DNA of 64,000 bases from Escherichia coli O127:H6 str. E2348/69 (lineage in GTDB: Bacteria; Pseudomonadota; Gammaproteobacteria; Enterobacterales; Enterobacteriaceae): assembly GCF_000026545.1 (NCBI RefSeq), contig NC_011601.1; one strand, 5' to 3'. The first letter of the stretch is position 1; each line of letters starts with the position of its first letter. Below, piece after piece: positions 50,869-52,846 of this stretch. The translations under genes were made by a program, and so were the position numbers. A model generated the notes under the pieces. The model worked only from the letters and a program-made list of their open reading frames with translations. It ran no database searches and was not told the DNA's origin.

Positions 50869-50892
50869 GCGAAGTTAACCCTCTCCGCCCGG

Positions 50893-52442
50893 CTGTCTCT
50901 TATACACAAATCCCCACCCGGGGATTTGTGATGTCTGTCAGTCTGCTTTAGGGGGACTCTTTCCATCCGGTAGTTTCCTTCCTCCCCGGCAGCGATTTTT
51001 TGAACTTTTTCCTCACCTGTTGATCTTCTCTTATATTTCATTTCCTTCGGGTCTGTTATGGTACTTTCTGATTGTTATTCATGGGCTAACGAGCAGTTTG
51101 GACATGCCCGTCTCGGTGATCCGCGTCGTACACGACGCCTTGTGTCACTGGCCTCTTCTCTCGCTCAGCATGCAGGTCTTTCTATTGTGAAATCATCCCA
51201 GTCCACTGCTCAGGTTGAAGGTGCGTACCGCCTGATACGTAACCCGTCTGTGTCCCCGCAAGCCATTGCCGAAGCCGGATTTACCGCCACTGTAAGGGCA
51301 TGTGAGGCTCATCCGCTGCTCCTCGCGCTGGAAGACACCACCACCATTAACTTCAGTCACAGTACGGCATCTGATGACCTGGGGAATACCACCACTAACC
51401 CGAAGACGCGCGGGCTGCTGGCTCACTCTGTCCTGATGTACGCCCCCGACAGCGCCCTGCCAGTCGGTCTTATCGAACAGCAGCGCTGGAGTCGTGCCAC
51501 GGACACCTACGGTGTTAAGCACCAGCGAAAAGAACGTCCCTATGAAGAAAAAGAAAGTTACCGCTGGCAGCAGGCTTCGGAGCGCATGGCCGAATGGCTG
51601 GGGGAGATACAGAAACGGGTAATCACTGTCTGTGACCGGGAAGCGGATATCTGGCATTACCTGCATTATAAAGTCAGCCACGGGCAGCGCTTCGTGGTGC
51701 GTGCAGCACAGAATCGCCGGCTGGAAGAAGCACCCGGCAAGCTCTTCGAACTGCCGGAAGTCCTGGCAACCGCGGGAAGCCACACGCTGAATGTGATGCA
51801 AAAAGGCGGGCGGGCAGCCCGCCAGGCCCGGATGTTCATCAGTTACAGCGAAGTCAGCATAAAAAATCCCGACAACAGCGGCCAGGCGCTCCCGCTCACG
51901 TATGTCTGTTGCCGGGAGCAGGCAGAGGACGGCGCCTGCTGGCATCTGCTGACGTCAGAAAAAGTGGCGAGTGCCGCCGATGCGCGACGTATCGTCAGCC
52001 ATTACGAGCGACGCTGGCTGATAGAGGAATACCACAAGGCGTGGAAAAGTGGTGGTACATGTGTGGAATCGCTGCGAATGCAGACCCGGGATAACCTCGA
52101 GCGCATGGTGGTTATCAAGGCGTTTATCGCGGTGCGGGTGCTGGGCCTGCGGCAGGGCGGTATCAGTGAAGAAACACAAAATGACAGCTGTGAGAAAATA
52201 CTGACGCCGACAGAGTGGAAACTGCTGTGGGTTAAGCTGGAAGGAAAACCGCTTCCGTCACAGATGCCGACACTGAAATGGGCCTGTCTGAAACTGGCGA
52301 AACTGGGGCGATGGCATGACAGCAAACGCACCGGTCGCCCCGGTTGGGTAGTCATGTGGGATGGCTGGTTCAGACTTCAGGATATGGTTGAGGGTTACCT
52401 GGTGATGAAGTCTCTTGATCAGGAGATCTGATCAAGAGACAG
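50893..52442 (+). mobile_element. IS4-family (IS50-like) insertion sequence, ~1550 bp
   Basis: 19-bp terminal repeats ctgtctcttatacacaaat (50893..50911) and agatctgatcaagagacag (52424..52442, reverse complement ctgtctcttgatcagatct); one transposase ORF; perfect 8-bp direct repeat ccgcccgg at 50885..50892 and 52443..52450. Confidence 0.9.
51058..52431 (+). CDS. IS4-family DDE transposase (Tn5 Tnp-like)
   Basis: 457-aa ORF alignable by eye to Tn5 transposase: LEDTT, VCDREADI and C-terminal YERRWLIEEYHKAWK (YREK signature) all present. Confidence 0.9.
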   Translation: MVLSDCYSWANEQFGHARLGDPRRTRRLVSLASSLAQHAGLSIVKSSQSTAQVEGAYRLIRNPSVSPQAIAEAGFTATVRACEAHPLLLALEDTTTINFSHSTASDDLGNTTTNPKTRGLLAHSVLMYAPDSALPVGLIEQQRWSRATDTYGVKHQRKERPYEEKESYRWQQASERMAEWLGEIQKRVITVCDREADIWHYLHYKVSHGQRFVVRAAQNRRLEEAPGKLFELPEVLATAGSHTLNVMQKGGRAARQARMFISYSEVSIKNPDNSGQALPLTYVCCREQAEDGACWHLLTSEKVASAADARRIVSHYERRWLIEEYHKAWKSGGTCVESLRMQTRDNLERMVVIKAFIAVRVLGLRQGGISEETQNDSCEKILTPTEWKLLWVKLEGKPLPSQMPTLKWACLKLAKLGRWHDSKRTGRPGWVVMWDGWFRLQDMVEGYLVMKSLDQEI

Positions 52443-52456
52443 CCGCCCGGAGAGGG

Positions 52457-52846
52457 TTAGTAGTTCCAGCGATAACGCTGCAAGTCGATTTGCCCTCTTC
52501 CTGACACCATCACACCTTCTGCCAGTAATGCCTGTCGCTGACGCTGTAAATCCGGTCCGGTTAGCGAAATGGTGCCGTGGCGATTAACCACCCGATGCCA
52601 GGGCAAGGTGCTGCCTTCCGGGAGACGCTTTAACACACCACCCACCTGGCGCGCGGCGCGGGGCGATCCCGCCAGTTTCGCCACATCACCGTAAGTGGTG
52701 ACATAGCCTTCGGGAATAGCTGCTACGATTTGCCAGACGCGTTGGGGAAATGAATCTTCTTTTTCCATCTTTTCTTCCTGAGGTAATTTTTCAGCATAAT
52801 CTGGAAAAACGCCCGAGTGAAGCCGCATTGCGCAAGAAACCAGCAT
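52457..52846 (-). CDS. atl: alkyltransferase-like DNA-repair protein Atl (YbaZ)
   Basis: ORF 52457..52867; start placed at second in-frame ATG (MLVSCAMRLHSG...) for ~129 aa; the choice of start is uncertain. Confidence 0.8.
   Translation of the reverse strand: MLVSCAMRLHSGVFPDYAEKLPQEEKMEKEDSFPQRVWQIVAAIPEGYVTTYGDVAKLAGSPRAARQVGGVLKRLPEGSTLPWHRVVNRHGTISLTGPDLQRQRQALLAEGVMVSGRGQIDLQRYRWNY

Follow-up and report, generated by a model that had tools for sequence, protein, structure and literature searches.

The target consensus of Tn5 is A-GNTYWRANC-T, and that of the insertion sequence (IS) IS231A is GGG-N5-CCC. A 2008 review of the IS4 family describes a 'spectacular apparent insertion specificity' for some elements of the IS4 subgroup and for ISRm22, and reports no arm specificity for the IS50 subgroup (PMC2266710). 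ISRm22 is located in repetitive extragenic palindromic (REP) sequences, and IS1397 and ISKpn1 (IS3 family) as well as IS621, ISPa11 and ISPpu9 (IS110 family) occupy a fixed position in these short GC-rich extragenic palindromes of enterobacteria and pseudomonads (PMC1525189). In staphylococci, IS1272 and TnSha1 (IS1182 family) insert into hairpins, of which many are confirmed transcription terminators, and a given hairpin is hit more than once and in either orientation; these elements show no sequence consensus and no duplication, and cut bluntly within the stem, with loss of part of the target (PMC4923244). Here we analyzed a window of 64,000 nucleotides from the enteropathogenic Escherichia coli (EPEC) strain O127:H6 E2348/69, which is 100% identical to positions 384001-448000 of NZ_LT827011.1 and was read with the RefSeq annotation. 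The window holds an intact copy of ISEc13, a DDE element of the Tn5/IS50 type, within a hairpin between the convergent genes ybaY and atl. We consider it highly probable that ISEc13 sits in this hairpin through its own target preference, for CCCCT-N8-AGGGG, because ISEc13 and its relatives preferentially insert into palindromes with a C-run on one side and a G-run on the other.

ISEc13 occupies positions 50893-52442 of the window on the plus strand. Its left terminus at 50893 reads CTGTCTCTTATACACAAAT and its right terminus at 52442 reads ...AGATCTGATCAAGAGACAG. No other pair of such inverted ends occurs in the window (2 matches against 0.04 expected by chance), and the 1550 bp of the element are 100% identical to annotated ISEc13 copies in E2348/69, which bears out the borders proposed in the initial annotation of this DNA. 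The perfect 8-bp direct repeat that the annotation had described, CCGCCCGG, is likewise present at 50885-50892 and 52443-52450, and the same junction is found in five other genomes. No 9-bp repeat can be read at the borders of the element. A 9-bp duplication with a mismatch or a 1-bp deletion was ruled out, since the exact 8-bp junction occurs in 6 independent genomes and since 15 of the 19 distinct ISEc13 sites for which both flanks are available have a duplication of 8 bp and 4 have one of 9 bp. Directly outside the duplication lie a left target arm CCTCT (50880-50884; consensus CCCCT) and a right target arm AGAGG (52451-52455; consensus AGGGG), both given on the plus strand and assigned from the half-site consensus of 52 distinct ISEc13 flanks.

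A query made of the rejoined flanks (300+300 nt) aligned without a break along its entire (100%) length. At least 80% of this query is present in 5394 of 5426 complete E. coli genomes. The empty site of NZ_CP098223.1, read directly, is ...TAAGCGAAGTTAACCCTCTCCGCCCGGAGAGGGTTAGTAGTTCC..., in agreement with the hairpin that had been predicted for the unoccupied locus. The rejoined hairpin has an 11-bp stem (TAACCCTCTCC/GGAGAGGGTTA) and a GCCC loop. Its folding energy is -21.4 kcal/mol for the ybaY strand (z = -4.9) and -20.3 kcal/mol for the atl strand. The hairpin begins 8-9 nt past the stop codon of ybaY and overlaps that of atl. The rejoined site and its fold confirm that the insertion went into the loop and upper stem between the two convergent genes. 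Based on the sequence, the empty site and the fold, the left remnant of the split hairpin (50876-50892) consists of the stem arm TAACCCTCTCC and loop and holds the left copy of the duplication, and the right remnant (52443-52459) consists of loop and the stem arm GGAGAGGGTTA and overlaps the atl stop; 14 nt separate that stop from the end of the IS. Both genes are left intact by the insertion. An assignment of the hairpin to the intrinsic (Rho-independent) terminators was considered and rejected, as the hairpin is present and the T-run is absent. In an Rfam search no family matched the hairpin or fell inside the IS, and the sole match nearby was ffs.

The element itself is already known. It is named ISEc13 and was first annotated in EPEC E2348/69, and this very copy is annotated in RefSeq, where copies with 100% identity over the 1550 bp are labelled 'IS4-like element ISEc13 family transposase'. 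The element's protein of 457 aa is the same as CAS07558.1, the 'transposase of ISEc13' of E. coli O127:H6. It matches Tn5 transposase structures over its whole length (E = 7e-83, PDB 1MUH), with 42% identity to the Tn5 transposase over 436 aligned residues. The match to the NCBIfam model NF033590 reaches 511 bits (cut-off 160). The DDE triad of the IS4 family is formed by D93, D193 and E323, which align with D97, D188 and E326 of Tn5, and the YREK signature Y-(2)-R-(3)-E-(6)-K by Y316, R319, E323 and K330 within YERRWLIEEYHKAWK. A single unframeshifted open reading frame (ORF) of 457 codons at 51058-52431 fills the element, in line with the IS4 family. The IS50 subgroup is defined by a length of 1350-1550 bp, ends beginning 5'-CT/CW and direct repeats of 8-9 bp (PMC2266710); ISEc13 has 1550 bp, both of its ends start with CTGTCTCTT, and its duplications are 8-9 bp. 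The initial annotation had called the element IS50-like, which holds for its type and not for its identity. IS50 proper, the element of Tn5, was rejected as an identification because of the 42% protein identity and of a duplication that is 8 bp and not 9 bp. The same annotation had taken the 8-bp duplication as unusual, a view that we do not uphold, since this length is the usual one for ISEc13 and lies within the range of the subgroup (PMC2266710).

ISEc13-like DNA matches 2991 of the 5426 complete E. coli genomes. Coverage of the element reaches at least 80% in 873 of these, and a single genome has as many as about 30 matching places, the maximum being in E2348/69. Many E. coli genomes have only partial matches, and many matches are just 90-99% identical. 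In the searchable literature ISEc13 appears only as a listed name; ISfinder was outside this search.

An initial clue to the target rule came from ISEc13 copies elsewhere, whose alignments to this locus extended 2-17 bp past the IS ends into the hairpin arms. We collected flanks through exact-protein look-ups and from viral contigs and complete genomes, which gave 52 distinct 24-nt flanks, each oriented from the outside to the IS end. C occurs at 39, 48, 43 and 41 of the 52 flanks at positions -13, -12, -11 and -10, T or C at -9 in 47 of 52, and there is enrichment of C at -8 and -7 and of G at -2 and -1. At least three C are present within -13 to -10 in 46 of 52 flanks, compared with 5% expected (p ~4e-53), and a control offset shows nothing. 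None of the 52 flanks has a G-run at -13 to -10. The full target is therefore two-fold symmetric, CCCCT-N8-AGGGG, and its N8 is the part that is duplicated.

The rule singles out the ybaY-atl site within its own surroundings. We trained a log-odds half-site matrix without any ybaY-atl copy and scanned the window after removal of the IS, at 62,424 positions. The site CCTCT CCGCCCGG AGAGG scores 15.06 bits and ranks first of the 62,424 positions, the next distinct site scoring 10.28 bits. Among 20 shuffled windows, 3 reach 15.06 bits anywhere. Other confirmed ISEc13 sites score 11-19 bits. The interpretation offered in the initial annotation is partly supported. The hairpin location is no coincidence, since ISEc13 selects CCCCT-N8-AGGGG palindromes.

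The known targets are heterogeneous hairpins, including sib/ibs terminators, which are united by CCCCT-N8-AGGGG. Two loci (L049 and L050) carry ISEc13 in the terminator hairpin of a sib/ibs type I toxin-antitoxin repeat (GGCCCCT-TCCTCGGG-AGGGGC); the two repeats are different ones, and the orientations of the element relative to the repeat are opposite. Several other target sites (L047, L059, L013, L073 and L037) are within repeats of the type CCCTCACCCTAACCCTCTCC...GGGGCGAGGGG, which we take to be intergenic repeats of a BoxC-like kind. The sequence AGAGGGTTAG, which forms the right arm of the ybaY-atl hairpin, is found verbatim at L037.

Set against the described systems, ISEc13 has the fold of IS50/Tn5 with conserved DDE and YREK residues, and like them carries a stop codon inside its right end. 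It departs from them in target recognition, with a strong motif in the arms outside the duplication, whereas the consensus of Tn5 is weak and lies inside its 9 bp. IS231A, IS4 and ISRm22 are also IS4-family DDE elements with target conservation in arms that flank the duplication, but they belong to other subgroups and differ from ISEc13 in arm sequence, polarity and spacing. For IS231A, an insertion specificity is on record. In function, ISEc13 is similar to the hairpin- and terminator-targeting IS1272/TnSha1 and to the REP-targeting elements. IS1272/TnSha1 differ in transposase family, and ISEc13 has a duplication of 8-9 bp and a clear motif. Hairpin targeting of the IS1272/TnSha1 type was considered for ISEc13 and does not fit, given the clear CCCCT-N8-AGGGG motif, the exact 8-bp duplication and an empty site that is fully restored. 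The REP-targeting elements use other transposase families and chemistry and have REP sequences as targets, whereas the transposase of ISEc13 falls into the IS4 family rather than IS3 or IS110.

By homology to Tn5, ISEc13 most likely moves by cut-and-paste. Its transposase complex would prefer the two-fold symmetric sequence 5'-CCCCT-N8-AGGGG-3', with a dimer in which each subunit may read one arm and each 3' end may be joined beside its arm. If the IS ends are joined at such staggered positions adjoining the arms, the 8 bp (sometimes 9) between the arms would be duplicated as a result. Since palindromes with a C-run and a G-run are mostly terminator-type intergenic hairpins, a preference of this kind would steer the IS to harmless spots between converging or tandem genes.

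We compared ISEc13 with relatives from a protein search, limited to those on long contigs. All six sit between C-rich and G-rich arms (identities are to the ISEc13 transposase). P0016 from Enterobacterales (77%) occupies CCCTCT-CCCCGCGGG-AGAGGG and CCCCTCTC-CCTTTGGGG-AGAGGGG, and P0035 from Serratia (71%) occupies TCCCTCC-CCGCAGGAG-AGGGCTAGGGTGAGGGG; the duplication of both is 9 bp. ISPlu9 from Photorhabdus (57%) has weaker C-run/G-run arms, is also found inside genes and duplicates 8-9 bp. ISPpr3 from Photobacterium (52%) is inserted at AAAAAGGCT-TTTATTAAA-AGCCTTTTT with a 9-bp duplication. Of the two Vibrio elements, P0106 (52%) is inserted at AAAAAGCCC-AGCGTTCGCT-GGGCTTTTTTTT with duplications of 9, 10 or 11 bp, and P0094 (51%) in GCCR-N-YGGC terminators with duplications of 11, 12 or 13 bp. 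Across the lineage the duplication thus spans 8-13 bp and varies with the arm distance. All 9 duplication-bearing loci of P0106 are textbook intrinsic terminators, and the duplication covers the loop and the top of the stem. At the Vibrio and Photobacterium targets, an A-run, hairpin and T-run are visible in the sequences and folds. Among the papers listed in a literature search, none mentions ISPlu9 or ISPpr3.

These relatives bear on the question of whether the transposase reads a structure (a cruciform, or an extruded or single-stranded hairpin) and not a sequence, the C and G arms being merely typical of stable hairpins. The Vibrio relatives conserve just GCC/GGC, yet every one of their sites is a strong terminator hairpin, and their duplication of 9-13 bp tracks the arm distance. 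In ISEc13, arm complementarity beyond the 5-bp arms is above chance at some distances (0.42 at position 6 and 0.74 at position 8). A pure structure reader would, however, take both polarities, whereas ISEc13 has a fixed polarity, 46 of 52 flanks showing the C-run to the left and the G-run to the right. In addition, about half of the ISEc13 sites form weak hairpins, having just 4-5 complementary arm pairs around an 8-nt spacer. We regard recognition of structure alone as unlikely on this evidence. Because polarity is fixed and so many sites pair so little, sequence seems dominant over shape in the target choice of ISEc13, as judged from the flanks; structure may be more important for the Vibrio relatives.

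ISEc13 has a perfect left sub-terminal hairpin, CACAAATCCCC-ACCC-GGGGATTTGTG, predicted by folding at 50905-50930 on the plus strand. A hairpin follows directly after the left 19 bp in all of these elements but ISPlu9, and its stem sequence varies while the pairing is kept. In the relatives a T-run comes after this hairpin and adjoins TTGAAC, and the hairpin is called terminator-like at L084 and L073; hairpin and T-run are visible in P0016, P0094 and ISPpr3. The T-run of ISEc13 is degenerate (ATTTGTGATG). The left-end hairpin and T-run probably stop host read-through into the transposase gene and would replace the hairpin that the insertion destroys; ISEc13 appears to have retained the hairpin while its T-run decayed. 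Taken together, ISEc13, the 71-77% identical enterobacterial relatives, ISPlu9, ISPpr3 and the Vibrio elements may form a clade that is site-selective for GC-rich hairpins and intrinsic terminators. Symmetric arms, which are CCCCT/AGGGG in E. coli and either GCCY/RGGC or GCCR/YGGC in Vibrio, would set the joining positions with no fixed stagger and hence duplications of 8-13 bp, and most members would bring a replacement terminator in their left end. We put this joint reading forward tentatively, as a proposition whose chances fall somewhat short of even. The searchable literature, in a search that did not extend to ISfinder, gave no description of the target rule or of how widely it holds in the clade, of hot spots of ISEc13, of a variable duplication length or of the built-in terminator.

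ISEc13 has about 65 extra nt between the left hairpin and TTGAAC (window 50931-50999), whereas the T-run of the relatives abuts TTGAAC. A 1564-bp variant from E. fergusonii has a slightly longer insert at the same place.

Individual target sites have been used more than once. At the mog/satP hairpin (ATCCCCCC-GAGC-GGGGGGAT), ISEc13 is inserted in opposite orientations in E2348/69 and in CP148541.1. A prophage site, GCCCCT-GTTTATGC-AGGGGC, is taken in both orientations (L035 and L058 versus L012 and L039). At the agp/yccJ hairpin the duplication is 8 bp long in one strain and 9 bp in another. The base-level register of the motif and the insertions in two orientations strongly favour targeting over selection, as far as genome comparison can tell.

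At ybaY-atl, ISEc13 is present at the identical base pair and in the identical orientation in 13 genomes. The copies fall into at least three ISEc13 alleles that differ by up to 31 nt. SCU-115 and CP148541.1 share a 'modern' allele, and two older alleles (that of the RM14723 group and that of A25 and DCE7) are 27-29 nt from the modern one, 31 nt from that of E2348/69 and 16 nt from each other. The simplest reading of this allele pattern would be repeated insertion at ybaY-atl. The alternative is a single old insertion, passed on by vertical descent or through homologous recombination, its alleles arising through divergence or gene conversion. That all 13 occupied sites share junction and orientation agrees with such a history, as does the comparison of E2348/69 with RM14723, in which the IS differs by 2.0% and the flanks by 2.1%, fitting vertical divergence. 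SCU-115 also holds other ISEc13 matches (7 places) and CP148541.1 other modern copies, which may have converted the old resident one. Against a single insertion, the 380-nt flanks, which differ by 0-2 nt among several carriers, are identical in RM14723, SCU-115 and CP148541.1, yet the IS alleles of these genomes are 28-29 nt apart. The resident copy of A25 and DCE7 is 27 nt from the other copies of the same genome, and the copy of E2348/69 is 0-2 nt from its own sister copies. We therefore think a single old insertion doubtful as the origin of all 13 copies, and prefer repeated targeted insertion.

A near-random insertion as in Tn5, with the hairpin hit by chance or through the survival of harmless intergenic insertions, is very improbable. 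In its favour, the Tn5 target consensus is reportedly only weak (Goryshin et al. are said to have described it so in 1998), every site analyzed has survived in nature and nearly all of them lie between genes. Against it, selection cannot give the base-level register by which 46 of 52 flanks have the C-run at -13 to -10, two loci are hit at one and the same base pair in both orientations, the arms are also found at prophage sites and, for ISPlu9, inside a nonribosomal peptide synthetase gene, and the real site ranks first of 62,424 in the window.

Several results weigh against the preference for CCCCT-N8-AGGGG as the cause of the ybaY-atl insertion, or against its extension to a terminator-targeting clade. 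An IS query in reverse orientation at ybaY-atl found 0 of 5426 genomes, which is weakly at odds with fully symmetric, repeated use of the site, and orientation thus offers no proof that insertion recurred here. The sites were sampled from a handful of strains, and some of the targets are related to each other (for example the two sib/ibs repeats and the BoxC-like repeats). All of them are survivors in sequenced genomes, so that the intergenic bias is in part due to selection. No T-run follows the ybaY-atl hairpin on either strand, and a terminator scan of the empty locus gives no call. Terminator targeting in the strict sense thus applies to the Vibrio and Photobacterium relatives only. As for the built-in terminator, ISPlu9 has no left-end hairpin, and the left hairpin of ISEc13 lacks a proper T-run.

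The flanks of some copies do not match each other. In CP148541.1, the duplications are swapped between two ISEc13 copies at ~2.305 and 2.365 Mb (L059 and L060), which implies a ~60-kb inversion by recombination between the two IS. Comparable mismatched flanks were seen at other copies and in the Vibrio relative (L036, L023/L024 and L086).

The left terminal 19 bp of ISEc13 (CTGTCTCTTATACACAAAT, 50893-50911, plus strand) match the IS50 outside end and the synthetic mosaic end at 17 of 19 positions each, and TTATACACA at 50900-50908 is presumably the DnaA box of the IS50 outside end. The right terminal 19 bp (CTGTCTCTTGATCAGATCT, 52424-52442, minus strand) match the IS50 inside end at 19 of 19 positions; two Dam sites (GATC) lie inside them (at 52425 and 52430) and a third at 52417. 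The first 16 nt of the left end are the same as in the Tn5 mosaic end used as the Nextera adapter (CTGTCTCTTATACACATCT), and several draft contigs begin or stop precisely at ISEc13 ends. Adapter trimming may therefore clip genuine reads at ISEc13 left ends.

Upstream of the transposase gene, a putative promoter at 51000-51027 on the plus strand consists of TTGAAC, a 16-nt spacer and GATCTT; its putative -10 region contains a Dam site (GATC, 51022-51025), as in IS50. It was recognized by conservation: TTGAAC-N16-GATCTN is kept in the five elements ISEc13, P0016, P0035, ISPlu9 and P0106 (the first Vibrio element), which span 52-77% protein identity to ISEc13. Two further relatives retain TTGAAC, but their GATC is further downstream. 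A simple sigma-70 scan called no promoter anywhere in the IS. The transposase promoter of IS50 is under Dam control, and we infer that TTGAAC-N16-GATCTN is a transposase promoter controlled in the same way. The transposase gene (51058-52431, plus strand, 457 aa) ends with a TGA stop inside the right end. A Tn5-like inhibitor protein was considered and rejected, as ISEc13 differs from IS50/Tn5 in having no ATG at the Tn5 inhibitor start: among ATG starts, none is near the equivalent of Tn5 Met56, and Met127 is the first internal methionine.

A sub-terminal hairpin, GTCTCTTGATCAG-GAGAT-CTGATCAAGAGAC, is also present in the right end at 52410-52440, predicted by folds of both strands, in which the terminal repeat is paired with an inward-facing copy of itself. 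Its perfect 13-bp stem spans the transposase stop and is kept in the 77% (P0016), 71% (P0035) and 52% (Vibrio) relatives. Candidate roles of this hairpin are stabilization of the 3' end of the mRNA, a block to inward transcription from neighbouring genes and a second binding site for the transposase.

The host genes beside the element are ybaY, which encodes a YbaY family lipoprotein (50296-50868 on the plus strand in the ORF list and RefSeq; stop TAA at 50866-50868), and atl (ybaZ), which encodes an MGMT-family alkyltransferase-like protein (52457-52768 on the minus strand; stop at 52457-52459). The length of atl varies by gene call, with 103 aa in RefSeq and 129 aa in one assembly; its ORF is open upstream to 52867. 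The gene ffs for the 4.5S RNA of the signal recognition particle lies at 52931-53027, ~160 bp beyond the RefSeq start of atl. All other annotated genes of the window, from queA to mscK, are housekeeping genes, consistent with the earlier statement that the element is the only accessory DNA in this region. The gene maa (maltose O-acetyltransferase, 55842-56394, minus strand) is annotated as a frameshifted pseudogene in E2348/69.

As a genome feature, one named and annotated IS in an intergenic hairpin of a well-studied strain is routine, and the value of this locus lies in the targeting rule. The rule would explain repeated insertion at ybaY-atl, mog-satP, agp-yccJ, the sib/ibs terminators and the BoxC-like repeats in unrelated E. 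coli. With it, ISEc13 insertion sites become predictable from sequence, and shared ISEc13 positions would be poor markers of common descent. To our knowledge, there is no structure of the target-capture step of Tn5-type transposition. The 10-bp symmetric arm motif and the spacing-dependent duplication in relatives of Tn5 bear on target capture by Tn5-type synaptic complexes, and, if it has not been described previously, the clade gives a natural handle on this step. ISEc13-type elements could also seed site-biased variants of the widely used Tn5 tool.

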